Both the position numbers and the translations under genes were made by a program. This document shows positions 4,091 to 63,719 of a stretch of 64,000 bases of DNA, piece by piece. The notes under the pieces are model-generated. The model was not told the origin of the DNA. It did no database searches and saw only the letters and a list, made by a program, of their open reading frames with translations. The first letter of the stretch is position 1. Each line of letters starts with the position of its first letter. Source of the DNA: a virus; the IMG/VR virus record IMGVR_UViG_3300045004_000088, positions 128,001 to 192,000 of that record; one strand, written 5' to 3'.

Positions 4091-4753
4091 TTATCGCGGT
4101 CGAATCGTCATGTTGCTTCGGACAAAGTCTCTATGCTTCTCCCAGTTCTGGCCTTTGGGGTCGGGAACCCCGCAGTCCCTCAACGTCGGTATGACGAACC
4201 GTCTCGTCTTACTGGGTTTGAAGTTTTCAATCGCCGAGCAATACTTTGACTCGAACTTTGAACATTGTATGTCACCGAACAACGTCGTCAAAGACAAAAC
4301 CTTCACAATTGACGAAACTGTTTCCATGACTTCGCTCGACTTCAACCAGTGTCGGTGACCGCCGACGCGGGCGTAATCGATGTACCACATCATGGTGTCG
4401 GGGTCATACGAGAAAAGCGGGTTGGCGTTGCCGACCTCAAAGTGGAGTTCGATCAGATCTTCGATCTCGGAGAAATGCACCTGTTGTTGGGGTAGATACA
4501 ACTCGTAGTAGAGGTAGGCGAACACGGCTCGAAAACTGATTCCGAGGACCGACTTGCGTTTGTAAAACTTGGTCCGCAGGCAGTACGAGCAGAAGAAGTT
4601 GTTGTCCCCGGAAAGGCGTTCGAGGATCTCGGACCCTTTGGACGCAACGAGTTTGCCGCAGAAGTCACAGAGGCGGCACGATTCCTTTGGGAAGTTTGTG
4701 GAAACGGCCGGATGAATGTCGGCTTCGGTACGAAAAACGGGCATAGCAGGCAT
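4091..4753 (-). CDS. hypothetical Cys-rich protein
   Basis: Met 20 of ORF 4091..4810 preceded by GGGAG RBS; CRLCDFC...CSYC cysteine pairs. Confidence 0.55.
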   Translation of the reverse strand: MPAMPVFRTEADIHPAVSTNFPKESCRLCDFCGKLVASKGSEILERLSGDNNFFCSYCLRTKFYKRKSVLGISFRAVFAYLYYELYLPQQQVHFSEIEDLIELHFEVGNANPLFSYDPDTMMWYIDYARVGGHRHWLKSSEVMETVSSIVKVLSLTTLFGDIQCSKFESKYCSAIENFKPSKTRRFVIPTLRDCGVPDPKGQNWEKHRDFVRSNMTIRPR

Positions 4754-5358: not shown

Positions 5359-5692
5359 ACAGGCAGATGCCGGCTTTCTTGAGTCGTTCCTCGTGATCGA
5401 GGTCGATGATGCTTTTCACTTCCTTCGGGATCAGGGACGGCTCCTTCTCGTAGACCCGTTCCCAGTAGCCCCACTGGTCTTCGCTGGCCGGGTTCTGGAT
5501 CACCATGCCGAGCTTCCAGTATTTGTAGAGGATCTGCTCGACCCGCTCTTTGGTCAGTCCGGCCTCTTTGGAGAGTGCGGAGACGCTCCTCCAAGCCCAC
5601 TTCTGGTGCCGCGAGAGGACCATGAAGAGAGCTTGTTCTTCATCGCCCTCTTTGGTGCCGTGCGGGTACACTTCCGACCACTGCTTTGGCAT
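5357..5692 (-). CDS. hypothetical protein
   Basis: 111-aa ORF; AAGGTGA RBS upstream of the ATG. Confidence 0.55.
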   Translation of the reverse strand: MPKQWSEVYPHGTKEGDEEQALFMVLSRHQKWAWRSVSALSKEAGLTKERVEQILYKYWKLGMVIQNPASEDQWGYWERVYEKEPSLIPKEVKSIIDLDHEERLKKAGICL

Positions 5693-11013: not shown

Positions 11014-11955
11014 CTATTTAGTAGATGGACTTGATTTTTGCAAAAACTGACCTCTCTCATCACGCTCCATAACCCTCTTCTTCTGACTTTCAGAGAGTTT
11101 CTTACGGCTCTCGTCACTCCACACCTTGCCCAAATGGGCCGTGCGGCGTCCGTTGTGCTTCTCGGCAAGAGCCTGACACTCATCAACCTCAAGCACCTGG
11201 GTCGGGATGAATGGATTGACCGAGTTGATCTCGGCACGGCACAGTTTACAGCCGTTGTCGTTTCGGCTGGTGTCGAAGTACAGGACGATCTCCTTGAGAT
11301 GTGGCCGCAGCAGTACCGCCTTGTTCTCACCTTCTGCTTGCACCACGTCGCCACAAAGGGTCTGGATAGTTGTTGCCGCTTCCAGAAGATGTTGCTTGGA
11401 CTGCCGGTACTCAGAAACCAGGGAATGCAGACCAACCTCCAGTTGTTCGATCTCCACCTGTTTGTCCTTGATAAACTGTTTGATGTCAGGATCGTCGCCC
11501 ATGTCAGCAAACTTCAAGATCAACTTCTGCTTCTCGGCTTTCAAAGAAACGACCTTACCACGCACAGACTGGTGAACTTCATCAAAGATTTCTTGGTACG
11601 TCAATTCCAAATAGTCGGCGTCATTGTCTGGAGTCGCCATGTACTTCCACGCACGCTTCTTGAAGTTCTTGGCCTTCTCATCCTCCGTATCGCCAGGGAG
11701 GTTAGCGAAGATGAACTTATACATCTTCTGAGCGACTTCACCGCAAGCGGCGATGGCATTGTCTGTCCGCTTGTTTGTTGGGTCCAGCATCTCTCCGATC
11801 AGTTCGTTGACGATGCCGTTGGAGGACTTGACCTTTTCACAGAGCGTAAGGTAGCTCTTTTCGAGCCAACGCAGCCAGTTGTCAATGATTTCGTGGATCA
11901 CGTCGATCTTGACTGCCCCACACTTCTCACAGCGATAGTTTTTCGACGGCTTCAT
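11014..11955 (-). CDS. NUMOD3-motif protein, putative homing-endonuclease-like or DNA-binding
   Basis: 313-aa ORF; C-term GRRTAHLGKVWSDESRKKLSESQKKR resembles NUMOD3; N-term CEKCG; lies inside the UDG-disrupting insert. Confidence 0.5.
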   Translation of the reverse strand: MKPSKNYRCEKCGAVKIDVIHEIIDNWLRWLEKSYLTLCEKVKSSNGIVNELIGEMLDPTNKRTDNAIAACGEVAQKMYKFIFANLPGDTEDEKAKNFKKRAWKYMATPDNDADYLELTYQEIFDEVHQSVRGKVVSLKAEKQKLILKFADMGDDPDIKQFIKDKQVEIEQLEVGLHSLVSEYRQSKQHLLEAATTIQTLCGDVVQAEGENKAVLLRPHLKEIVLYFDTSRNDNGCKLCRAEINSVNPFIPTQVLEVDECQALAEKHNGRRTAHLGKVWSDESRKKLSESQKKRVMERDERGQFLQKSSPSTK

Positions 11956-12043
11956 CCCATCGACGGCAGCGCGTTCGACTGCGACATCCTCGACATGATC
12001 GCCGCGTTGAAGAAGAAATACGCCGACAAGCCATAATTACAGC

Positions 12044-18112: not shown

Positions 18113-18671
18113 TGCCCATTTCGAGCATCCAGCCATCGGTGTTCGGCTTGACCGAGGACACACGCCACCACCGCTTATCCCCGTTTTGTGGATAGAGTAC
18201 AGATCCGACTGTGACTTGATCGGTGGGACACCAGATGGTGAGCGAGATGTCGTCGCCCAAAAGGATGATCCCTTCAAACGTGAACGGTTCGCCGGTGTAG
18301 TCGATTTTTGTTTTCATGTCTCCGTAAAGCTCGTCTTTCACTTTCTTAACAACGCCGGGCAAGCAATAGATAACGACCTTGTTTGGCGAGTGTTTGAGTA
18401 CGGATGTGACTTTGGGCGGGGGCGTCTCAACTTTGACGCTCTCGACCGGGGGCAGATCTTTGGTGATGTCTTGAACGGCCTCGGCCAACTCATCCACAAA
18501 ACTGACTTGCTCCAGGGATCGGTAGTCTGTCTGGCCCGTGTCGGGAACGACCAATTCTTTGAATTTGAAGTTGTGGAGTGTGAAATCACCATTCCAGATT
18601 TCCTGATTCATCATGAAAGGATTGGTTCTGTTCAGTCGGTACGGCGTTCCGTCAGATTTTCTGAGCGTCAT
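18075..18671 (-). CDS. hypothetical protein (N-term MTLRKSDGTPYRL)
   Basis: Met 53 of ORF 18075..18827 with AGAGGA RBS; N-term DGTPY motif shared with the gene at 20479. Confidence 0.5.
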   Translation of the reverse strand: MTLRKSDGTPYRLNRTNPFMMNQEIWNGDFTLHNFKFKELVVPDTGQTDYRSLEQVSFVDELAEAVQDITKDLPPVESVKVETPPPKVTSVLKHSPNKVVIYCLPGVVKKVKDELYGDMKTKIDYTGEPFTFEGIILLGDDISLTIWCPTDQVTVGSVLYPQNGDKRWWRVSSVKPNTDGWMLEMGISDFQPRFRATP

Positions 18672-18699
18672 GGAAGTCCTCTTTATTTTTAGGCACGCA

Positions 18700-18707
18700 C
18701 TATATAC
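18700..18707. promoter_or_regulatory. GTATATAG motif (minus orientation) in a divergent intergenic region
   Basis: About 30 nt upstream of the minus gene start 18671 and 47 nt upstream of the plus gene 18754. Confidence 0.3.
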
Positions 18708-18753
18708 AAGAGCTTGCCGCTTCGCTAATACAGTTCGCAAGAACGGGAGACAA

Positions 18754-19152
18754 ATGTCACTAACAGTACCCCTGACCTCGCAGATCGTTCTGCTCCAGTA
18801 TTTGATGGGGCTGACCGCGCCGGGCAATAAGATTCTTCACCTGTACAAAAACGACCCGTCGATTTCGACAGCAACGACGCTTGGCAGCTTGACCGAATCG
18901 ACCGAAGCCGGGTACGCCCCGGTCACCCTGTACTCGATCAGTTGGACCATCTCGCAGGACATGGCGAGCGTCACGACGGCGATCTACAGTGAAATGCCGT
19001 TCGACTTCACGACCGGAGCGACGGTGTACGGATACTACGTCACGAGTGCGGCGGGAAGCCTGCTGTGGGTCGAGCGGTTCGGTGGCGCTCCGTATCAGCT
19101 TCCGGTCAATGGTGGCCAGATCGCTGTTTCGGCCAGAGCGACCCTCGACTAA
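18754..19152 (+). CDS. hypothetical protein
   Basis: Met 48 of ORF 18613..19152 with GGGAGA RBS. Confidence 0.5.
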   Translation: MSLTVPLTSQIVLLQYLMGLTAPGNKILHLYKNDPSISTATTLGSLTESTEAGYAPVTLYSISWTISQDMASVTTAIYSEMPFDFTTGATVYGYYVTSAAGSLLWVERFGGAPYQLPVNGGQIAVSARATLD

Positions 19153-56423: not shown

Positions 56424-57487
56424 GCTGCCTCTTCGTGCTGGATAATGCGTTTGCCGAAATCGATCAGACGCGGCTTCGGCAAGCCGTTGCAGCCGACATC
56501 ATCGACATAGCGTTCTAGCATTTTGTCTTCGGCTTGCAGGATCGCGAGTGCGTCCTGAATTACATGAGTTTCCTCTTCCGTCTTCTTGCGGAACTGGCGC
56601 ACATTTACCGTCGCGGCCCCCTTGCTCGACAGAAGCTCTCGCCGAATCTTCGCCACGTCAATGGCCGACAGATCCTCCGTCATCAGCGTAACGAACGCCC
56701 CCTTCAAATCGTACAGATTGAGTTGGTCCGGCTTCAAGTAGTAGTGCCTCGGACTGAACTCGTTGAGGATGTACTCCCGGTTCCCGCTCTCGCAGTCGAG
56801 CAGGATCAGGTGTTTGTCTTGGAACGCCTCGCCGAAGCTCAACTGGAGCGGGCTGCCGATGTACTCGACCTTGTCGGCCAGCACTTGGGTGGCGTGGTAG
56901 TGGCCGAGGAACGTCCGCTCGTACCGCTCGAACAGGTTGGCCGAGACTGGCACCATTTCGCCGTCGTGTTCGATGACCACGTCGGAGACGGTGCCGGAAC
57001 TGTTCAGCTTCGCGCCGTCAATGGCGATGTGGCCGAGGCAGTATTTCGCCGGCTCGTCGTAATCGCCGAGCATTTCCACGGCACTGACCGGATCGTGGGT
57101 GAAAGGGATGAAATCCCACTTCGCGCCGCCGATGGTCCGTCGCTCGACAGAACTGATGACCGTGACGCCGGGCAACGCTTGGAACGGGTAGACTCCGCTG
57201 ATCGAGGTGTCGTCGTTGAACCACAGGTCGTGGTTTCCGAGCAGCAGCCAGAGGCGGAACTTGCCGTTGCAGTATTTCTTGAGGATCTCGTAGACGCGGG
57301 TGTACGTCAGTACGTCGATCTTGGATCGGTCGTGTAGCAAGTCGCCGCCGAACAGGATGTCTTCGACGTGACGGGCCTTCGCGGTCTGGAACACCCATTC
57401 GAGTGCCTTCAGACAGTCTTCGAGTCTTTCCGCACGGCGTTTGTGGGGGTGGACGTGACAGTCGGCGAAGAGTAAAACATGGCTCAT
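56420..57487 (-). CDS. Mre11/SbcD-like nuclease (T4 gp47-like)
   Basis: Calcineurin-like phosphoesterase motifs DCHVHPH, GGDLLHD, GNHD; Met 27 with AGGAGTGG RBS. Confidence 0.75.
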   Translation of the reverse strand: MSHVLLFADCHVHPHKRRAERLEDCLKALEWVFQTAKARHVEDILFGGDLLHDRSKIDVLTYTRVYEILKKYCNGKFRLWLLLGNHDLWFNDDTSISGVYPFQALPGVTVISSVERRTIGGAKWDFIPFTHDPVSAVEMLGDYDEPAKYCLGHIAIDGAKLNSSGTVSDVVIEHDGEMVPVSANLFERYERTFLGHYHATQVLADKVEYIGSPLQLSFGEAFQDKHLILLDCESGNREYILNEFSPRHYYLKPDQLNLYDLKGAFVTLMTEDLSAIDVAKIRRELLSSKGAATVNVRQFRKKTEEETHVIQDALAILQAEDKMLERYVDDVGCNGLPKPRLIDFGKRIIQHEEAA

Positions 57488-57561
57488 CACCACTCCTGAA
57501 ATGAAAGAAGACGCACAGTCAACCCGTGCGCCTTCTAGTCTTAATGAAAAAACCCCTTCAG

Positions 57562-57855
57562 TCAAGACGAGGTTTTATTTTGTTGTTGTTGGCCGTGGCT
57601 CAGGTACTTCTCCAAAACGTCCCAGACGTTCGTGGACTTCAGCTTGGTCGGTGCTTGGTTGCCAGCACCCGGTGCGCCACCGCCCGGCCCGCCCATAGGA
57701 GGAGGTCCACCCGGAGGCAAACCGCCGCCACCCATAGGTGGAGGACCGCCCATCGGAGGACCACCCGGCGGTGCGCCACCGCCCGGAGGACCGCCCGCCG
57801 GTGGTGGCGGTGCCGCGTCTTCGATAAGATTCAAGAACTGGGTGAATGTCTTCAT
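57562..57855 (-). CDS. Gly/Pro-rich low-complexity small protein (uncertain; the opposite strand also carries an ORF)
   Basis: Met 66 of ORF 57562..58050. GTATATAC lies 6 nt upstream. A hairpin plus U-tract terminator overlaps the stop. Confidence 0.3.
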   Translation of the reverse strand: MKTFTQFLNLIEDAAPPPPAGGPPGGGAPPGGPPMGGPPPMGGGGLPPGGPPPMGGPGGGAPGAGNQAPTKLKSTNVWDVLEKYLSHGQQQQNKTSS

Positions 57856-57860
57856 CGCAG

Positions 57861-57868
57861 GTATATAC
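57861..57868. promoter_or_regulatory. palindromic GTATATAC motif
   Basis: Identical to the flank GGTATATACG at 2178. Sits between the minus start 57855 and the plus ORF 57895. Confidence 0.3.
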
Positions 57869-58114
57869 GATCCGGGTAAGAAGAAAGGGGCGTCATGGCT
57901 TGGAACTTTTGTGGCGGGTGCAGGCGGGCTTTTGAAAGCTGGATTCACTGTCAGGGCTTCAGGTGCCACGACTGCCCTCGTCAGATTCCCTCGATACTCG
58001 ATGTGATGAGCAGAGCCGATTTGGAAGAAAATCCAAAATCGCGCGAACAAAACCCGTCGAGCGGCGTCTACTATTGTGAGCGGCCCGCGAAGCCGAAAAA
58101 AATTCGCGAACGGG

Positions 58115-58343
58115 TTGACGAGAAAAAGAAGTCAGCCTACTATGTAACGACAGAGCGGCAAAAGCCCTCTGCAAACACACGAAGAAAAATGAACACGTTC
58201 TCCCTTAGTCTGTTTAGCTCGCTGTCGTCCTTGTATCACAAGAGACGAGACGCAGGCTCTACGGGCTGAGTGAGGTACACCAGAACCTCTCAGACGAACA
58301 CCCGAAGACCCGCGTCTCCCAAGACGCGGGTCTTCTTGTTTTT
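58115..58343 (+). ncRNA. candidate small RNA transcription unit (sigma70-like promoter to rho-independent terminator)
   Basis: TTGACG-17nt-TACTAT at 58115-58143. About 190 nt of AT-rich sequence with no convincing ORF. Strong terminator at 58304-58343. Confidence 0.3.
58304..58343 (+). terminator. rho-independent terminator
   Basis: GAAGACCCGCGTCT-ccca-AGACGCGGGTCTTC followed by TTGTTTTT. Confidence 0.65.
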
Positions 58344-58352
58344 CTGGAGGCT

Positions 58353-58724
58353 GTGATGGAATTCAAACGTGACGTGATGAGGTTGTTGGTTCCGGGCGTC
58401 AAGTACGTCGGCCCCGGTTTGGACTACGAAAAACTGCCGCCGCAAACGGAAGCGGCGGTCAAGATGGTGTGCAAGAAGTTCGGGATCAGCTACAGCCACG
58501 CGGAAGAGATTGTCGGGGACATCGACAAGTACCAGTGGCACATCGAGCGGATCAGGTTCATGGACGACAAGGTGAGAGAGTTCCTTCGGGAACACGACGT
58601 GGTCGGCGCGGTCAAGGCGATCAAGGCGGTTCGACCGGACTGGGGCTTGCTGAACTGCAAGCTGTACATGGAAGACGTGCGTGACGGGAAGAAACCGTGG
58701 CCGGCAGTGAAGGCGGTCAAATGA
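58353..58724 (+). CDS. hypothetical protein
   Basis: GGAGG RBS; GTG at 58353 or ATG at 58356. Confidence 0.55.
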   Translation: MMEFKRDVMRLLVPGVKYVGPGLDYEKLPPQTEAAVKMVCKKFGISYSHAEEIVGDIDKYQWHIERIRFMDDKVREFLREHDVVGAVKAIKAVRPDWGLLNCKLYMEDVRDGKKPWPAVKAVK

Positions 58725-58891
58725 AAAAGGCCGTCAACGAAGAAGAGAAACAGTGGATGAAAAACCGCGACAAGAAGTTGCGGCCGAAGCCCGGACTGTT
58801 TTGGTGCGACTGTGATCGCAACCACGTTTCCGCGTGGCAAAAATGCGAGGTATGTAACAGTCGGACTGGCAAGCGGTGCTTTAAGAAGTGA
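58721..58891 (+). CDS. small zinc-finger protein
   Basis: ATGA overlap with the upstream gene; CDCD...CEVCNSRTGKRC. Confidence 0.4.
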   Translation: MKKAVNEEEKQWMKNRDKKLRPKPGLFWCDCDRNHVSAWQKCEVCNSRTGKRCFKK

Positions 58892-58893
58892 AT

Positions 58894-58921
58894 GCGGTTG
58901 TGGCGAAACTGGTAGACGCGC
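58894..58921 (+). repeat. 28-nt duplicate of the 5' end of tRNA-Leu(CAG) (acceptor plus D-arm)
   Basis: gcggttgtggcgaaa[c/t]tggtagacgcgc matches 59459-59486 with one mismatch; diverges after the D-arm; no T-arm or 3' acceptor. Confidence 0.5.
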
Positions 58922-58969
58922 AAGATGGCAAATTCTGAGGTGTGATACTCTGCTAAGTGCGGAGGAAAC

Positions 58970-59458
58970 ATGCCAAAGAAAAGAAACTGGACCGACGAGC
59001 AATTGAAGGAAGCTGTTGCTACTTCGTTCTCGTACTCAGAAGTGTTGAGAAAACTGAAGTTGAAGTTCGCTGGCGGAACTCACGCGGCGATCAAGCAAAA
59101 AGTGAAGTGGTTGAAACTCAATGTTTCGCATTTCACAGGCAGTAGTTGGTGTCGAGGTGAGAAGTACCGACAAACGCTACTGAAAAGGAACACCCGAACA
59201 CTGGAAGAGATCTTGGTAAAAGACTCGACCTATCAATCGGGGGCGAAGCTGAAAAAGAGGCTGGTGACGGCGGGAATTTTGAAAGACATCTGCTGCCAGT
59301 GTGGGAATGAAGGTGTGTGGTGCGGTCAAGCTCTGACGTTACAGCTTGATCACAAGAATGGCGACCGGACTGATCACAGGTTAGAAAACCTCCGAGTGAT
59401 ATGTCCAAACTGTCATTCGCAGACACCTAACTTTGCTGGACGTAACGCGAAGAAGTAA
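58970..59458 (+). CDS. HNH homing endonuclease
   Basis: LQLDHKNGDRTDHRLENLRVICPNCH; GGAGGAAAC RBS; stop abuts the tRNA-Leu start. Confidence 0.65.
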   Translation: MPKKRNWTDEQLKEAVATSFSYSEVLRKLKLKFAGGTHAAIKQKVKWLKLNVSHFTGSSWCRGEKYRQTLLKRNTRTLEEILVKDSTYQSGAKLKKRLVTAGILKDICCQCGNEGVWCGQALTLQLDHKNGDRTDHRLENLRVICPNCHSQTPNFAGRNAKK

Positions 59459-59540
59459 GCGGTTGTGGCGAAATTGGTAGACGCGCGGTCTTCAGATGGC
59501 CGTCCCGCAAGGGGTGTGGGTTCGACTCCCACCAACCGCA
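59459..59540 (+). tRNA. tRNA-Leu(CAG), type II
   Basis: Acceptor GCGGTTG/CAACCGC. Anticodon stem CGGTC/GGCCG with loop TTCAGAT. Long variable arm. T-arm GTGGG-TTCGACT-CCCAC. No encoded CCA. Confidence 0.7.
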
Positions 59541-59607
59541 CTGTAAGACCCGGCAACGGGTGTTCTTTGACAACTGGGCGAGACAACAAGCGGTTCTCGG
59601 AGCAGCT

Positions 59608-59862
59608 ATGAAAAACGTTTGGTTGGAATTTTTGCAGTTGAAGACCGATTTCCCGCTCGGATCGTGGGTACAAATGACACTCGATCCTTTGGACGATTAC
59701 TTTGAATCGATCTGGGCTTCTGATATGATGGGGGTAGTGACGGGGTACAACATCATGCAGTCACTGGTGGTGGTGTACTTCGACAACAACGTCACGATGC
59801 AGTGCGGCCCGAAACTACTGAAGGTCGTTGAAAGCCCTTTGGTCCATGACTGGGACATGTGA
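59608..59862 (+). CDS. small hypothetical protein
   Basis: Met 17 of ORF 59560..59862 with GGAGCAGC RBS. Confidence 0.45.
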   Translation: MKNVWLEFLQLKTDFPLGSWVQMTLDPLDDYFESIWASDMMGVVTGYNIMQSLVVVYFDNNVTMQCGPKLLKVVESPLVHDWDM

Positions 59863-60092
59863 AAATGACGGACAAAGAAGAGATCGAGATCCTTCAGGCT
59901 CGTATCGATGAGTTGAAGGGGGTAAAGAGCGGCCCGCCGAAGTGTTTCCACTGTGGCGGGAGCGGCGAGGTCGCGTGGGAAGGAACCTGCTACTACTGCG
60001 TGGGGAGCGGTTACTGCTACCCACCGAACGATCCCAACCATTGGAGCAACAAGAAAGAAGAAAACGGACCTTATTACGATCAGGTCTGGTGA
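59859..60092 (+). CDS. small Cys-rich protein
   Basis: CFHCGGSG...CYYCVGSGYC; start overlaps the upstream stop. Confidence 0.45.
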   Translation: MKMTDKEEIEILQARIDELKGVKSGPPKCFHCGGSGEVAWEGTCYYCVGSGYCYPPNDPNHWSNKKEENGPYYDQVW

Positions 60093-60097
60093 GATAA

Positions 60098-60179
60098 GCC
60101 AAAGTGACGGAAATGGCAGACGTACTCCGCTCAAAACGGAGCGCCGCAAGGCGTGTGGGTTCGATTCCCACCTTTGGCA
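60098..60179 (+). tRNA. tRNA-Leu(CAA), type II
   Basis: Acceptor GCCAAAG/CTTTGGC. Anticodon stem CTCCG/CGGAG with loop CTCAAAA. Variable arm CGCCGCAAGGCGTGT. T-arm GTGGG-TTCGATT-CCCAC. Confidence 0.7.
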
Positions 60180-60185
60180 CTAACT

Positions 60186-60266
60186 GTACCGGCTGAACAT
60201 GGGCGAGTTCCCCTGGCTGTAACCCAGGTGCCTTCGGCTGTAGAGGTTCGACTCCTCTCCGGTACA
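60186..60266 (+). tRNA. tRNA-Tyr(GTA), type II
   Basis: Acceptor GTACCGG/CCGGTAC. D-stem GAA/TTC. Anticodon stem CCTGG/CCAGG with loop CTGTAAC. Variable arm contains a GCC-TTCG-GC tetraloop hairpin. T-arm AGAGG-TTCGACT-CCTCT. Confidence 0.65.
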
Positions 60267-60268
60267 CT

Positions 60269-60486
60269 GCATCCGCAACGGAATAGCCTTGATCGGTCTT
60301 GGGATAATTAACAAGGTGCTGCTCGATAAGTAGCGAAAGCTACCGCTTGCGGGCGTAAGGTCGGGGTGCAAGTATCGACCTCAAGACGGCGGATGCAATC
60401 GGGTGTCGATCCACACGGCAGACTGTAAATCTGCTGCCATTATCCTGTGTGGCGGTCGGCGATGGGTTCAACTCCTACGGCACCCA
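60269..60486 (+). ncRNA. unresolved structured RNA: 128-nt helix-closed domain with GNRA tetraloops plus a tRNA-like 3' part
   Basis: GCATCCGC (60269-76) pairs with GCGGATGC (60389-96) around GTAGC-GAAA-GCTAC and C-GTAA-G. The 3' part has GGGTGTC/GGCACCC acceptor-like ends and GCAGA-CTGTAAA-TCTGC, but no room for a D-arm. Confidence 0.3.
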
Positions 60487-60499
60487 CTGGAGACTCGCG

Positions 60500-61018
60500 A
60501 TGAGCGACATGATGGAACTTCTGGCGAAACGGTACGCCGAACCCGATCTGAACCCGTATCTTTTCGAGATCGGACAAAAGGTGAGGCTCCGCAAGGGCCG
60601 CTCGAACGACGGGCAGACGCCTCAACATTGGGACGGGGCAGTCGCAACAGTCGAAAGTCGATACTGCACCGGACTCCACAAGGAACACTGGTACAAGTTG
60701 AGACACTCGAACGGCCAACTGGCAGAGTTCTGCGAAGACGAGATCGACGCACGCTACGCGCGGCGGCGAGTCAACTTCAAAGAAGTTCTGGCCGAGGAGA
60801 ACCCGAAAGCCATCGTGTTTGACGGACTCGAAGAAGCCATGATCGGCGTCGGCGGTCAAACGACGCAGAGGCTCGCGGTCTACAGTGTCCGAAAGATCAT
60901 GGAACTGCTCAGGCAGAAACACGGCGACGAACAAGCGGCCCAAGAGTGGTTCGACTTCAACATCGCGACCCTCTGGGCCGGCGAGAATACTCCGATCTTG
61001 GTGTACGATGAAGTCTGA
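60500..61018 (+). CDS. hypothetical protein
   Basis: Met 18 of ORF 60449..61018 with GGAGACTCGCG RBS. Confidence 0.5.
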   Translation: MSDMMELLAKRYAEPDLNPYLFEIGQKVRLRKGRSNDGQTPQHWDGAVATVESRYCTGLHKEHWYKLRHSNGQLAEFCEDEIDARYARRRVNFKEVLAEENPKAIVFDGLEEAMIGVGGQTTQRLAVYSVRKIMELLRQKHGDEQAAQEWFDFNIATLWAGENTPILVYDEV

Positions 61019-61280
61019 AGACAATCTGCGGGTGGCTCCTCACGAGGAAACACCCAGGCAGAAGTATCTGTGTGACAACGCGAGACACCTGATCTGCGTG
61101 CCGTATTCCATTGATAATCTGCACAAGATGGCGGCAGATTTGGGAATCAAGAAGTGCTGGTTCCACAAGGACCATTACGACATTCCGAAGCGACGGATCG
61201 CCGAGATCACCGCGAAGTGCGAGGTCGTGGACAGCCGAGAAATCGTCAAGATCGTGAGGCCGAAGAACTCTGCGAAGTGA
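61008..61280 (+). CDS. hypothetical protein
   Basis: Met 42 of ORF 60885..61280; overlaps the upstream gene end by 11 nt. Confidence 0.45.
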   Translation: MKSEDNLRVAPHEETPRQKYLCDNARHLICVPYSIDNLHKMAADLGIKKCWFHKDHYDIPKRRIAEITAKCEVVDSREIVKIVRPKNSAK

Positions 61281-61289
61281 TAGAAATTT

Positions 61290-61371
61290 GGGTCTGCTAA
61301 CGCTGTGGGAAGCTACGTTGACTGTAAATCAGCCGCCTTCGGGATAAGAGGTTCGATTCCTCACAGACCCA
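61290..61371 (+). tRNA. tRNA-Tyr(GTA), second copy, slightly non-canonical D region
   Basis: Acceptor GGGTCTG/CAGACCC. Anticodon stem GTTGA/TCAGC with loop CTGTAAA. Variable arm has a CC-TTCG-GG hairpin. T-arm GAGG-TTCGATT-CCTC. Confidence 0.5.
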
Positions 61372-61377
61372 CTGAAT

Positions 61378-61452
61378 GCCTACCAAATGCTAATCTAGTG
61401 AAAGCTTAGGTTTGAAAAACCTAGTAGCCCGGAGCGTAACCGGGGGTAGGCA
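61378..61452 (+). tRNA. tRNA-like, possibly tRNA-Phe(GAA) with non-canonical T-loop
   Basis: Acceptor GCCTACC/GGTAGGC. D-stem GCT/AGC. Anticodon stem TAGGT/ACCTA with loop TTGAAAA. T-arm CCCGG-AGCGTAA-CCGGG lacks TTC. One to two extra nt at positions 8-10. Confidence 0.3.
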
Positions 61453-61471
61453 CTAGCCAGTATGCTCGTTC

Positions 61472-61542
61472 GGGATTACATGACAATTGGTTAAGTCGGG
61501 GAACTCAAATTCCCTATAGCTGGTTCAAATCCAGCGTATATC
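61472..61542 (+). tRNA. tRNA-like fragment or pseudo-tRNA (anticodon-like loop ACTCAAA, intact T-arm, no pairing acceptor)
   Basis: GGGGA-ACTCAAA-TTCCC hairpin plus canonical T-arm GCTGG-TTCAAAT-CCAGC. The 3' flank GTATATC does not complement the 5' GGGATTA. Confidence 0.25.
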
Positions 61543-61566
61543 TCGTGCAAATTTTGACTGGCAACT

Positions 61567-61639
61567 GCCGCGCAGGTGTAAAGGGTAGACACGCTTCCCT
61601 GAAAAGGAAGAGGACTCGGTTCGACTCCGAGGGGCGGCA
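61567..61639 (+). tRNA. tRNA-Phe(GAA)
   Basis: Acceptor GCCGCGC/GGGCGGC (one G-G mismatch). D-stem GTGT/ACAC. Anticodon stem CTTCC/GGAAG with loop CTGAAAA. T-arm CTCGG-TTCGACT-CCGAG. Confidence 0.65.
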
Positions 61640-61740
61640 CTTGAATAGTTTCGGCCTATGGCTGAAGAACGCCAAACCGTTGTCAGATAGACGCCAGAGG
61701 TGACTAGATTTTAGTAGGTGGTCCCTACTAGGAGTCAGTC

Positions 61741-61947
61741 ATGAACATCGACAACGTGAAGAGTGGCGTGAGCAAAGAGGAAGTCATGAGGCTGCTGCGT
61801 GCGGCCGGCATGCTCCAAGACTCGACGCCGGTGAAGCTGCAACAGATGCGGGCGGTTCGCGTGTCGCGGCCGGAACCCCGGCCCGAACACGAAGAACTCG
61901 GCATGAGCCACAGCGAGTGGTTCCGCCGCTACGTCAGCGACTGGTAA
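61741..61947 (+). CDS. small hypothetical protein
   Basis: GGAG RBS downstream of a TAGTAGG/CCTACTA hairpin. Confidence 0.45.
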   Translation: MNIDNVKSGVSKEEVMRLLRAAGMLQDSTPVKLQQMRAVRVSRPEPRPEHEELGMSHSEWFRRYVSDW

Positions 61948-62178
61948 TCACTTCCCGGCAACGAGCTTGCGGAGGTCGCTGGACGACTTAGACGGGTTAC
62001 GGATGATTTCTTTCACCAGTTCCTCGCCTTTGGAACTGGTGATCTTCGACCAGACCTTTTCGAGCGTGGTGCGGTTGTACTTCTTGACCAGCTTCTTCAG
62101 CCCGTCGATAAAGTCCTCGACGGCTTCGATGTCGCTGCTGCCCGTACCCGACTCGACAAATTGACGAAACGATTGCAT
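61948..62178 (-). CDS. small hypothetical protein
   Basis: 76-aa ORF with GGAGGG RBS; convergent with 61741..61947. Confidence 0.5.
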   Translation of the reverse strand: MQSFRQFVESGTGSSDIEAVEDFIDGLKKLVKKYNRTTLEKVWSKITSSKGEELVKEIIRNPSKSSSDLRKLVAGK

Positions 62179-62193
62179 AGACCCTCCAGTCTA

Positions 62194-62237
62194 TGTATCG
62201 ACTCGGAAGGAAAATATGTATCGACTCGGAAGGAAAA
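62194..62237 (+). repeat. tandem direct repeat 2 x tgtatcgactcggaaggaaaa (period 23); second copy forms the 5' end of tRNA-Ser(GGA)
   Basis: Exact duplication, visible in the sequence. Confidence 0.5.
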
Positions 62238-62313
62238 CCGGATGGGTGTCCGGCATCGCCTGGAAAGTGATTGGTGCCTTAAACGGCATGGGGATCGATA
62301 CCTCTTCCTTCCG
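62228..62313 (+). tRNA. tRNA-Ser(GGA), type II, non-canonical (T-loop ATCGATA, 4-bp T-stem)
   Basis: Acceptor GGAAGGA/TCCTTCC (7/7). D-arm CCGG-ATGGGTGT-CCGG. Anticodon stem ATCGC/GTGAT with loop CTGGAAA. Variable hairpin GTGCC-TTAAAC-GGCAT. T-arm GGGG-ATCGATA-CCTC. Confidence 0.5.
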
Positions 62314-62416
62314 CTATGTGTGACTGCAAAATGTGTCGGGCGCGGAAACGCAAAAAGCTCATCGACACGCTCCATTCAAAAGGCGTCATCCTCGTACACA
62401 GGGGCGAAGACTTTCT

Positions 62417-62728
62417 ATGCCAAACAAGTTCGAGGGCCGCTGGCGTTGGTGCAACCACTGCCAGTGCGCGAGAATCCGATGCTTCAAGTGCGGCAACATC
62501 TCGTGTAGCGGCGGCGGATGCGTCGAGTGCCACGACGAATTCACCGAAGCGATCAGAATGAGCGGCACGGGCGAACACCCTAGCAAAGAAGAACTCCTCG
62601 CCGACACCGAAGGCATTAGAATTGATGCCGAGTGGGGCGAAAAGGTATGGGACGCATGGTCGAGTACACAATCAAAAAAGGCAGCAAGCACCAGAACAGA
62701 CGGTGCGGCTACTGCGACGGGCGAATGA
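62417..62728 (+). CDS. Cys-rich small protein (uncertain; overlapping alternative ORFs)
   Basis: Met 29 of ORF 62333..62728; CNHCQCARIRCFKCGNISCSGGGCVEC; tail low-complexity. Confidence 0.35.
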   Translation: MPNKFEGRWRWCNHCQCARIRCFKCGNISCSGGGCVECHDEFTEAIRMSGTGEHPSKEELLADTEGIRIDAEWGEKVWDAWSSTQSKKAASTRTDGAATATGE

Positions 62729-62871
62729 CGCCCGGCCGCAAGTTCGTACTCGACCCGGAACGGTACGAAAACCAACTGCCAATGATCTTCCACCCGCAGT
62801 GCCGCGAAGCGTGGGTGAAGCGTGGCAAACAACCGCTGTGCCGAGGTAACTGTGACACTGTACATGCTTGA
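62656..62871 (+). CDS. small Cys-containing hypothetical protein
   Basis: Internal Met of ORF 62632..62871; CGYCDG...CREAW...CRGNC. Confidence 0.4.
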   Translation: MVEYTIKKGSKHQNRRCGYCDGRMTPGRKFVLDPERYENQLPMIFHPQCREAWVKRGKQPLCRGNCDTVHA

Positions 62872-63052
62872 GTGGTACAACGGCCTCGAATACGCAGACG
62901 CCGAGACGACACTGTTGGGCGTTTATCGAAGTGAAGAAACGCGATCCGAGGCCGAACAACGGTATCGCGAGTCGGAGGAACGTTGGCCCTTCACTAGCAA
63001 GGAAGGGAAGTTCGTGAAGTGGGAGATCCAGTTGGACAAGGATCTGGTGTGA
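62864..63052 (+). CDS. small hypothetical protein
   Basis: Met 15 of ORF 62822..63052; ATGCTTGA overlap with the upstream stop. Confidence 0.4.
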   Translation: MLEWYNGLEYADAETTLLGVYRSEETRSEAEQRYRESEERWPFTSKEGKFVKWEIQLDKDLV

Positions 63053-63055
63053 TAC

Positions 63056-63140
63056 GGAAGGGACTGTGAGTGGCTACACGACTTTGTTTGCTAAACAAAG
63101 ATACGGCAACGTATTGCGGGTTCGACGCCCGCTCCTTCCG
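63056..63140 (+). tRNA. tRNA-Ser(GCT), type II, with extended 6-bp anticodon stem
   Basis: Acceptor GGAAGGG/TCCTTCC. D-stem TGTG/CACG. Anticodon stem CTTTGT/ACAAAG with loop TTGCTAA. Variable hairpin ATACG-GCAA-CGTAT. T-arm GCGGG-TTCGACG-CCCGC. Confidence 0.6.
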
Positions 63141-63143
63141 CTC

Positions 63144-63233
63144 GGCTCTGTGCGCTAAATGGTAAAGCGGCAAGTTTCAAAAACTTGTGTCTCCCCGCGT
63201 GGGAAATTATCGGTTCGAGTCCGATCAGAGCCA
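63144..63233 (+). tRNA. tRNA-Leu(CAA), second copy, type II
   Basis: Acceptor GGCTCTG/CAGAGCC. D-stem CGC/GCG. Anticodon stem CAAGT/ACTTG with loop TTCAAAA. 21-nt variable arm. T-arm ATCGG-TTCGAGT-CCGAT. Confidence 0.65.
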
Positions 63234-63244
63234 CTTGAATCTTT

Positions 63245-63287: not shown

Positions 63288-63719
63288 ATGAACAAATACA
63301 GCAAAAAGAAATCCGATCAGCTAGGTGTCAACTTCAGTACGGCGTGCCACACTTTGAGGAAGTGTGTAATGTTCTCTCTGCTGAAAGAAGCCAAGAAAAA
63401 CGTTTGCTTCAGGTGCGGCAAGGCAATTCAGACTGCCGAAGAACTGAGTCTTGACCACAAAGAAGATTGGCTTGACAAGACCAACGCCAAAGAACTCTTC
63501 TTCGATTTGACCAACGTGGCCTACAGCCACCGCCGCTGCAATACTTTGGCGATGTTGGACAAACGCACACAGTTTCGCGGTGTGACCAAGATGGGTGGTA
63601 AAAAGAAACGTAAAAAGCCATATACGGCTCGCTGGTGGGATGGGACCAAGCAGGTGCATATCGGGTATTTCGCGACGGCCGAGGAAGCACAGAAAGCATT
63701 AGAAGAAAGGTCCAAATGA
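63288..63719 (+). CDS. HNH endonuclease with C-terminal AP2 DNA-binding domain
   Basis: LSLDHKEDW...NV..SHRRCN HNH; FRGVTKMGGKKKRKKPYTARWWDGTKQVHIGYFATAEEAQKA AP2-like; lower GC. Confidence 0.65.
   Translation: MNKYSKKKSDQLGVNFSTACHTLRKCVMFSLLKEAKKNVCFRCGKAIQTAEELSLDHKEDWLDKTNAKELFFDLTNVAYSHRRCNTLAMLDKRTQFRGVTKMGGKKKRKKPYTARWWDGTKQVHIGYFATAEEAQKALEERSK

Follow-up and report, generated by a model that had tools for sequence, protein, structure and literature searches.

The unit at 58115-58343 (+ strand) of a 64,000-nucleotide (nt) stretch of viral DNA, positions 128,001 to 192,000 of IMG/VR record IMGVR_UViG_3300045004_000088 (the whole stretch is referred to as the window), is very probably a ribosome-mediated transcription attenuator of the leader-peptide type, which heads an operon of transfer RNA (tRNA) genes for Leu, Ser, Tyr and Phe and senses the supply of these same tRNAs. 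This reading is drawn from the anatomy of the unit, its conservation, its mutually exclusive pairings, the way in which these pairings change with the position of a modelled ribosome, and the agreement of the leader codons with the tRNAs encoded downstream, all of which were computed directly from the sequences.

Relatives of the unit were collected from IMG/VR, a metagenome scan and a collection of 5.8 billion proteins, using the first gene downstream of the unit (encoding a protein of 122 amino acids, aa) as an anchor. Ten distinct versions were obtained (the window, L114, L115, L001/L120, L123, L125/L126, L127, L128, L131 and L136), all of them from huge uncultured phages with contigs of up to 476-586 kb; the window version has identical copies on contigs of up to 476 kb, and L125/L126 lies on a 586-kb contig. 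The long contigs of this group include those of 476 kb (JGI 3300044451 and related), 586 kb (JAWVGZ010000010.1) and 261 kb (IMGVR_UViG_3300013121_000017). The L136 contig begins just 5' of the leader ATG, with promoter and 5' hairpin outside its coverage. The other nine versions all display both promoter hexamers, a 5' hairpin, an unpaired C/A-rich stretch, an ATG, a mini open reading frame (ORF) and a terminator. The metagenome scan with a protein profile yielded one additional relative, and a scan of IMG/VR with a 15-base pattern returned 112 loci, one of them a true relative and the rest chance matches. Stricter and gapped patterns gave nothing further in IMG/VR, none of the nine matches from a pattern scan of genome contigs was related, and tblastn with the 122-aa protein found nothing. 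The sole DNA similarity to deposited phages was a match of 112 nt in an HNH gene (Variovorax phage). A further locus, L133 (positions 1-1846; ENA ERZ2272596), carries a relative of the 122-aa gene followed by a small Cys-rich gene and tRNA-Leu genes with the anticodons CAG and CAA.

The leader ORF of the window (58189..58269, + strand; ATG at 58189, TGA at 58267-58269) encodes the 26-residue peptide MNTFSLSLFSSLSSLYHKRRDAGSTG, followed by the stop, and is positioned as in an attenuator, as a short start-to-stop frame between the promoter and the first structural gene. Among the ten versions its length ranges from 26 to 29 codons, with an unchanged ATG and an intact frame throughout. The peptides of the relatives, each followed by a stop, are MNTFSLSLFSLSSSLYHKERDAGFTG, MHVFSLSLFSLSLSSLYLGRDAGSTDMSG, MTHFLLSLFSLSSLYLGRDAGFTDLAR, MNVFSLSLFSLSSSLYLGRGAGSTGISG, MNRLSLSLFSLSSLYLGRDVSFTDLEG, MNRFSLSLFSLSLSSLYLGRVAGSTGMSG, MNVFSLSLFSLPLSSLYLGRDAGSTDMSG and MKNLSLSLFSLYSSLYRGTRRRLFGPGE. 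Codons 4-16 of the window ORF (58198..58236, + strand) read F S L S L F S S L S S L Y and would constitute the regulatory codons; attenuators carry such a cluster, and here it comprises 13-15 consecutive F/S/L/Y codons. The 13-codon run exceeds every other F/S/L/Y run in the six frames of the window, and none of 200 random windows reaches 13. In scans of seven related loci, the corresponding run again exceeded all others in six; that of L131 is broken by a Pro codon.

The two halves of the ORF vary in different ways. Within the codon run, indels amount to 3 or 6 nt and preserve the frame, synonymous codons alternate (TCC/TCA, CTT/CTC, CTG/TTG, AGC/AGT), and the last Leu of the run (its penultimate residue) is encoded as TTG, CTT, CTG or TTA. 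The non-synonymous changes in the run remain inside the set {F,S,L,Y} (F to L, S to L and S to Y), with the one Pro exception. Past the Tyr codon the peptide varies, and in L136 a 1-nt indel changes the frame while the nucleotides CGAGACGC persist. As judged by these comparisons, the constraint acts on codons in the 5' half of the ORF and on the RNA in the 3' half. A leader peptide is expected to show this pattern, unlike a non-coding RNA or a small protein with a function of its own. The ATG is preceded by a putative translation initiation region that is C/A-rich, unstructured and without a clear Shine-Dalgarno sequence (58172..58188, + strand). The mean probability of being unpaired near the ATG is 0.59-0.96, compared to 0.31-0.48 for the whole leader, in all ten sequences.

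The folding predictions show the same order of elements in all sequences, namely a 5' hairpin, an open start region, a 1:2 hairpin, a spacer hairpin and the terminator. The 1:2 hairpin (58204..58270, + strand) joins the codon run to the 3' half of the ORF and would act as an anti-antiterminator and possibly also as a pause hairpin for RNA polymerase. Region 2 (GAGACGCAGGCTCTACGGG, 58247..58265, + strand) mimics the 3' arm of the terminator and can pair either with region 1 or with 58301-58318 (+ strand). The latter is region 3, made up of CCCG plus the 5' arm of the terminator, and provides the 3' strand of the antiterminator (2:3). The spacer hairpin between regions 2 and 3 (58272..58289, + strand) was found by folding, and relatives have a hairpin at this position with other stem sequences. 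In the intrinsic terminator (3:4; 58304..58343, + strand), the arms 58304-58317 and 58322-58335 form 14 pairs, nine of them G-C, around a 4-nt CCCA loop, and are followed by the tail TTGTTTTT. The antiterminator thus uses the 5' arm of the terminator and is exclusive with both the terminator and the codon-bearing 1:2 hairpin, which is the arrangement found in attenuators.

Conservation of these pairings was assessed by counting pairs on a MAFFT alignment (A4), with the pairing partners slid by 1-3 columns as controls. For the antiterminator (16 pairs), 92.4% of the alignment cells were paired (slid controls 29-53%) and three pairs were changed on both sides. The 1:2 hairpin (27 pairs) was paired in 88.1% of cells (slid controls 34-55%), with two pairs changed on both sides, and the terminator (14 pairs) in 96.4%, with compensatory changes in three pairs (five cells). 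Over the three helices the slid controls ranged from 29 to 66%. An unbiased RNAalifold prediction on the full alignment gave the 1:2 hairpin plus the terminator, and RNAalifold without an input structure recovered the antiterminator when given the segment from after the Tyr codon to before the terminator 3' arm. The region-2/region-3 duplex has a folding energy of -19 to -26 kcal/mol, and its z-scores relative to shuffled versions of region 2 run from -1.3 to -5.4. For the ten sequences, the element energies are -29 to -41 kcal/mol for 1:2, -24 to -32 for 2:3 and -19 to -27.5 for 3:4, comparable to those of classical attenuators.

The influence of a translating ribosome was modelled by cutting the RNA before the terminator 3' arm and masking a 30-nt block centred on each codon in the ribosomal aminoacyl site (A-site). 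With the A-site at codons 2-16, that is up to the Tyr codon, 8-10 of the 11 left-arm bases paired with region 2 at almost every position in all ten sequences. Once the A-site was 1-3 codons beyond the run (from codon 17-19), the antiterminator pairing was lost, the exception being codons 19-22 of L131. When no ribosome was placed on the RNA, the antiterminator pairing was absent in five of the ten sequences, which folded the 1:2 hairpin instead.

The genes behind the unit correspond to the amino acids of the codon run, as regulated genes of an attenuator are tied to the amino acids sensed: the arrays consist almost exclusively of Leu, Ser, Tyr and Phe tRNAs. In the window the array begins at 59459..63234 (+ strand) and continues beyond its end, with Leu-CAG (59459-59541), Leu-CAA (60098-60180), Tyr-GTA (60186-60267), Phe-GAA (61567-61640), Ser-GCT (63056-63141) and a second Leu-CAA (63144-63234), all on the + strand. 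These four types account for 6/6 same-strand tRNAs in the window, 13/13 in L122 (20 kb of the same phage as the window, reaching beyond the window end), 16/16 in L120, 13/13 in L125, 17/18 in L131, 6/6 in L114, 4/4 in L123 and 6/7 in L127; the share is 4/7 in L128, where two tRNAs without an assigned type resemble Leu tRNAs. The arrays offer a nearly full range of anticodons (Leu CAG/CAA/GAG/TAA/TAG, Ser GCT/CGA/GGA/TGA, Tyr GTA and Phe GAA). In L001 and L131, all F/S/L/Y codons in the leader (17/17 and 16/16) have a downstream phage tRNA that reads them, as opposed to none of the other 12-13 leader codons, and in both the leader samples every downstream anticodon family, G:U and U:G wobble being counted. 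In most loci where both are mapped, the first tRNA-Leu(CAG) lies 1-25 nt past the preceding gene (up to about 170 nt in L131), which in most loci leaves no room for a promoter or terminator in between. In L122, the next strong + strand terminator is about 14 kb downstream.

A distant case was found in LR756511.1, a complete 595-kb genome of an uncultured phage whose SbcD protein is 45% identical and which also carries the Gly/Pro-rich gene described below for the left flank of the window. On its opposite strand, the order is a 292-aa gene, a promoter (TTGACA-16-TAAAGT), a 5' hairpin, an AGGA motif, a GTG start and a leader ORF encoding MHTFSASLRLSSYSLSSLLYSNVRRGT up to its stop, then a strong terminator. 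A tRNA-Ser(GCT) gene follows about 45 nt past the terminator without an intervening 122-aa gene, together with 11 further tRNAs, all of them Ser, Leu or Tyr. The genome was scanned whole for tRNAs (loci L149-L160). The Leu/Ser/Tyr cluster, whose tRNAs have a long variable arm, lies at about 428-438 kb, and about 50 class-I tRNAs are found at 220-291 kb, 140-200 kb away, covering 17 amino acids including Phe. In 19 kb of the class-I cluster that were scanned, no analogous leader was seen, and promoters of the same type face the tRNAs with no strong terminator between. The leader of LR756511.1 has many S, L and Y residues and only one Phe, and this genome encodes its Phe tRNAs elsewhere. The comparison of the two clusters suggests that the leader accompanies the class-II tRNA array and that its composition follows the content of the array. 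The general claim that such a phage encodes only these four tRNA types was rejected, given the roughly 50 other tRNAs of LR756511.1. It was also seen that the promoter type TTGACA-16-TAAAGT recurs in this genome, that its tRNAs are sorted by structural class, and that it encodes a transfer-messenger RNA (L155 42480-42832) and a tRNA called as 'Pyl' with the amber-reading anticodon CTA (L152 30188-30261).

The unit sits in a 500-bp divergent intergenic region. Its sigma-70-type promoter (TTGACG-17-TACTAT, 58115..58143, + strand) was recognised by its sequence pattern and conservation: the pattern TTGACN{16,19}TAYTAT has this single match in the window, with 0.04 expected by chance, and the -35 TTGAC(A/G) and -10 TACTAT hexamers are kept in the nine versions with contig coverage while the spacer sequence varies (its length is 20 nt in L128). 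A transcript would start at about 58150, as judged by the position of the -10 hexamer, and run for approximately 193 nt (58150-58342), beginning 1-2 nt before a 5' stem-loop (58151..58171, + strand) found by folding. Relatives carry a hairpin with a 4-nt, mostly purine loop at this position, and their stem sequences differ. An initial reading of the sequence alone (the sequence-only reading) had described a near-consensus promoter, a strong terminator with a 14-bp stem and U-tract, and between them an AT-rich stretch without a convincing ORF. The promoter proved to be unique in the window and kept in the relatives, and the terminator is the strongest one on the + strand within 44-64 kb. The transcribed stretch is not AT-rich, with 52-53% GC compared to 56% for the window, and the lack of an ORF is contradicted by the mini-ORF conserved across the ten versions.

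Further upstream, an A-tract (58096..58102, + strand) read from the sequence lies 12-19 nt 5' of the -35 hexamer, and A/T tracts occupy the matching position in the relatives; it may possibly function as an UP element. At 58036-58080 (+ strand), 40-80 nt 5' of the -35 hexamer, there is a DNA motif composed of GAAGAAAAT..CGCGCGAACA, about 20 nt and GTCTACTAT, which is recognisable in nearly all relatives as CG[C/T]GAAC ... GTCTA[C/T]. It might serve the divergent region as an operator or as a second promoter.

Based on these elements, the following mechanism is proposed. Host RNA polymerase would start at about 58150, and the nascent RNA would present a 26-codon ORF in which codons 4-16 specify only Phe, Ser, Leu and Tyr. 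If the charged tRNAs are plentiful, a translating ribosome would proceed over region 2 (58247-58265) and the terminator would form; if no ribosome has been loaded, the 1:2 hairpin and then the terminator (58304-58343) would be expected. In both situations, a leader RNA of about 190 nt would be released just before the first gene. If any one of the four tRNAs is scarce, a ribosome stalled in the run would hold region 1 and leave region 2 free to pair with 58301-58318, and the antiterminator so formed would permit read-through into two small genes and the tRNA array. The new tRNAs would then relieve the stall and close a negative feedback loop. As to the physiological signal, we tentatively suggest a tRNA-depletion alarm, in which stalling reports that the Leu, Ser, Tyr and Phe tRNAs of the host have been cut, inactivated or outrun (for instance by defence nucleases) and induces phage replacements; this part of the proposal is possible but is held with considerable doubt.

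Several observations weigh against an attenuator at this position. First, the truncated RNA already folds 2:3 without a ribosome in five relatives, and a block at the last 1-2 codons or at the stop brings back partial 2:3 pairing in seven variants with ORFs of 27-29 residues; termination in the unstalled state therefore rests on a kinetic argument. In the relatives that prefer 2:3 in the folding model, termination would depend on 1:2 forming first, as is assumed for trp. Second, covariation is modest, with 2-3 pairs per helix changed on both sides, because most of the relatives are close, and the helices tested were first derived from one of the aligned sequences. The alternative pairing is also less clean in the LR756511.1 leader. 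Third, the leader ATG has no consistent Shine-Dalgarno sequence in the ten versions, and the neighbouring genes have strong ones. Fourth, some tRNA calls are odd: a Val-TAC of 73 nt in L127 (13278-13350), a class-II-like 'Ile-TAT' of 89 nt in L131 (3453-3541) and a 99-nt 'Lys-TTT' in the L128 array (4221-4319). These tRNAs may be recoded, degenerate or intron-bearing. Fifth, L133 has the first gene and tRNA-Leu genes with another same-strand gene where the leader would be. Either this lineage has lost the leader or the leader sits further upstream, the contig being too short to tell. Finally, a U-rich strand that pairs with the G-rich region 2 favours Phe, Leu and Ser codons, and the composition of the run could thus be partly structural. 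As a full account of the run, such a by-product fails to explain the frame-preserving indels, the fourfold synonymous Leu and the match to the tRNA set, although it may still contribute.

The sequence-only reading had proposed a candidate phage small RNA (sRNA), and a stand-alone, trans-acting sRNA of about 190 nt, with a mini-ORF that is incidental or part of a dual-function RNA, is the alternative that survives best, unlikely as we consider it. Like an sRNA gene, the unit is independently transcribed as far as its own promoter and strong terminator indicate. It is also conserved, and the fold of the 193-nt RNA is very stable (-86.5 kcal/mol; z = -7.5 against dinucleotide shuffles, and -4.5 without the terminator). 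Terminated attenuator leaders are moreover said to act in trans in some bacteria, as reportedly does rnTrpL in Sinorhizobium. A conserved, independent unit and an expected RNA of about 190 nt are thus common ground. What does not hold is that the unit lacks an ORF or is non-coding, since it has a conserved reading frame with synonymous variation. Several features speak against an sRNA of this kind: the 5' half of the ORF is conserved at the level of codons and its indels keep the frame, the alternative pairing depends on ribosome position, and the unit always stands directly 5' of this operon or immediately before the tRNA array. The mini-ORF with its regulatory codons, the exclusive 1:2/2:3/3:4 pairings and the matching tRNA operon downstream therefore favour a leader acting in cis. 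A second role for the terminated leader RNA is possible and compatible with the attenuator; that RNA could accumulate, so that a northern band alone would agree with both an sRNA and an attenuator.

Rfam searches and an analysis of conservation and covariation had been put forward as checks on the sRNA proposal. The second is answered by the ten versions and the modest covariation described above; in the first, no family matched the leader unit. At gathering thresholds, the whole window gave tRNAs only, and at E <= 10 over 57400-59000 the leader unit produced only sub-threshold, terminator-driven matches (Thr_leader with 18.2 bits against a cut-off of 55, and 6C with 25.7 against 47). The T-box model gave no match in the latter scan even at E <= 10 (57400-59000), and a tRNA-like or T-box RNA, which had support from neither ARAGORN nor Rfam, was ruled out.

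The conserved frame could alternatively belong to a functional, hydrophobic micropeptide of 26-29 aa (membrane-active, for example) whose gene ends in an ordinary terminator. The ORF is conserved with synonymous changes and its core FSLSLFSLSSLY is hydrophobic and polar, as such a gene would require, but L136 reads the C-terminal half in another frame with the nucleotides kept, and changes in the run preserve membership in {F,S,L,Y} rather than the sequence. Furthermore, the ORF has no Shine-Dalgarno sequence, lies wholly inside a hairpin that competes with the terminator and has a composition that matches the downstream tRNAs, which together make a micropeptide gene very unlikely. We regard as equally improbable a site of factor-dependent antitermination (lambda PR'-tR' with Q, N/nut or put RNA), at which a phage protein or RNA would override the terminator. 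Its geometry is the same, with a strong promoter, about 190 nt, a strong terminator and an operon, and the conserved 5' hairpin and upstream DNA motifs could bind a factor; however, it leaves the conserved frame, the F/S/L/Y run and the mimicry of the terminator arm by region 2 unexplained, and no Q-like or N-like gene was recognised among the neighbouring proteins, Q DNA elements not having been searched for. An antitermination factor could still act in addition to attenuation.

The weakest alternative, that the 124-aa ORF at 57895-58269 is a real protein gene with a coincidental promoter and terminator, draws on an N-terminal zinc-ribbon part conserved at the protein level, on a frame that in the window, L114 and L115 is open and in register with the leader ORF, and on a metagenome gene caller that predicted an 87-aa product ending at 58269, but it is extremely improbable given a middle part read in different frames in the window and L115, an absence from seven of the ten versions that retain promoter, leader and terminator, and only a weak sub-threshold Pfam match. 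As one gene, this ORF was rejected, being absent or closed in those seven. Its composition had been called R/C-rich and implausible, an argument that is only partly right: the whole ORF is indeed unconserved, but the N-terminal part (57895-~58030) looks like a genuine zinc-ribbon gene. A zinc-ribbon-like ORF with conserved Cys and synonymous changes is present only in the window (57895-~58050; MAWNFCGGCRRAFESWIHCQGFRCHDCP...), L114 (~5530-5690; MGDCFNVCGCCGKLVESWIHCQGFRCEDCP...) and L115 (~1063-1220; MSDCFNVCGGCGVLVESWIHCQGFRCENCP...). In these three no stop codon interrupts the frame through the promoter, and it continues in register into the leader ORF, despite a frameshift between the window and L115. 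The leader ORF is the tail of the 124-aa frame, and translation in the frame 57895-58269 is predicted for these last 26 codons. Taken together, the attenuator is the most economical reading, the sRNA, the micropeptide, the antitermination site and the 124-aa protein each explaining fewer of the observations.

Directly 3' of the terminator, which is thus placed between the leader ORF and the first gene as in an attenuator, come a GGAGG Shine-Dalgarno sequence and the 122-aa gene (58346..58724, + strand; ATG at 58356). The AlphaFold (AF2) model of its product (58356-58724) has a predicted local distance difference test score (pLDDT) of 93 and shows six helices and a beta hairpin. Neither Foldseek against the PDB nor a comparison with Pfam and PHROG families gave a match, and the motifs YQWH and WGLLECKLYMED are invariant among the relatives. 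The second small gene (56 aa, 58721..58891, + strand) is Cys-rich (CxC...CxxC), conserved, and adjoins the first gene in the relatives. It is followed by an HNH endonuclease gene (58970..59458, + strand; PF13392, PF01844) that ends 1 nt before the first tRNA. HNH homing-endonuclease genes occur among the tRNA genes in the window (58970-59458 and 63288-63719, + strand) and in L001 (2533-3123, - strand), at positions that vary between relatives and are reminiscent of the endonuclease-rich tRNA regions of T-even phages. On the + strand of L122, genes for a tRNA-binding-domain protein, a synthetase fragment and ribosome recycling factor were seen (11667-12011, 18669-19112 and 20374 onward), which suggests that the tRNA array belongs to a larger translation module. 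The tRNA-binding-domain protein (PF01588) is present in all longer relatives, and the synthetase fragment is of class II (147 aa, PF00587/PF13393).

The left flank of the window carries, on the - strand, a Gly/Pro-rich gene of 97 aa (57565-57855), then SbcD, SbcC and ribonucleotide reductase. The Gly/Pro-rich protein has 97-118 aa in all relatives (L001 3275-3568 and L148 19612-19968, for example), with a low-complexity PPGG/PPMGG core between a conserved N-terminus (MKTFTQFLNLIEDAA) and C-terminus (KLKSTNVWDVLEKYL), and matched no Pfam or PHROG family. In every case its gene points away from the leader promoter and precedes SbcD. Between it and the SbcD start lies a strong terminator-like - strand hairpin of 13 pairs (57506-57536), which is kept in L001 (3240-3270) and whose sub-threshold Rfam matches to STnc40 and mmgR look terminator-driven.

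Why phages carry tRNAs is a long-standing open question, for which the ideas include codon compensation and the substitution of tRNAs that the host or its defences have destroyed. If the attenuator is real, a clade of huge phages gauges four tRNA families directly and makes the matching tRNAs on demand, using the 13-codon run as a test strip on which almost all isoacceptors of the cluster are represented. The separate regulation of class-II tRNAs as a unit may hint at a particular vulnerability of these tRNAs during infection. Phage tRNAs have been reported to rescue infection from tRNA-cleaving defences (PMC10264068, PMC11555353, PMC13096335). Septu cuts the variable loop of tRNA-Tyr (PMC13096335), and human SLFN11 is reported to cleave type-II tRNAs, according to work cited in PMC13056530. 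These findings make a depletion alarm for class-II tRNAs an attractive idea; should it apply, the unit would be an inducible counter-defence circuit, and huge phages would regulate parts of the translation apparatus via codon-matched leader peptides. The literature searched contained no report of leader-peptide or translation-coupled attenuation for tRNA genes or for a phage tRNA cluster, so that the present unit, if confirmed, would be to our knowledge the first case of leader-peptide attenuation of tRNA genes and of a phage translation module. At about 250 nt the switch is compact and portable as a reporter, which makes the question of how phages control their tRNAs testable.

The best explanation of the unit is thus a known mechanism, leader-peptide attenuation, in a new setting. 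As in the enterobacterial leaders trpL, hisL, leuL, pheL, thrL and ilvL, a promoter-proximal mini-ORF carries a run of regulatory codons, the 1:2, 2:3 and 3:4 pairings would be chosen by ribosome position, and the terminated leader is 150-200 nt long; the sensing of several amino acids would resemble the multivalent thr and ilv leaders. Unlike these leaders, the phage unit would regulate tRNA genes and two small genes where those leaders control biosynthetic enzymes, addresses four amino acids with nearly all of their isoacceptor families, and has no Shine-Dalgarno sequence. It also stays below the gathering threshold of the Rfam leader families (Thr, Leu, His, Trp, Phe and others), without covariance-model similarity to them. 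In E. coli pheST, attenuation at the pheM leader controls phenylalanyl-tRNA synthetase, and thereby senses the supply of charged tRNA and corrects it. The phage leader would likewise control a translation component that handles the same amino acids as its regulatory codons; in contrast to pheM, which senses one amino acid and has a synthetase as output, it would sense four, with tRNAs as output. With the T-box riboswitch it would share the principle that tRNA status selects between terminator and antiterminator 5' of genes that restore charged tRNA, whereas in a T-box the uncharged tRNA itself is bound, by a specifier loop and the T-box sequence and without translation, and the predicted phage sensor is a translated ORF. 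The lambda PR'-tR' region (194-nt 6S RNA) is similar in its strong promoter, its terminated transcript of about 190 nt and an operon that needs read-through, but it relies on the DNA-binding antiterminator Q and a promoter-proximal pause and has no leader ORF, where a conserved ORF and an RNA switch are found here. Finally, clustered tRNAs interspersed with homing-endonuclease genes are shared with T4, T5 and other tRNA-rich phages, and in contrast to clusters of the T4/T5 type, the class-II tRNAs (together with Phe) appear to form a unit of their own under separate control.

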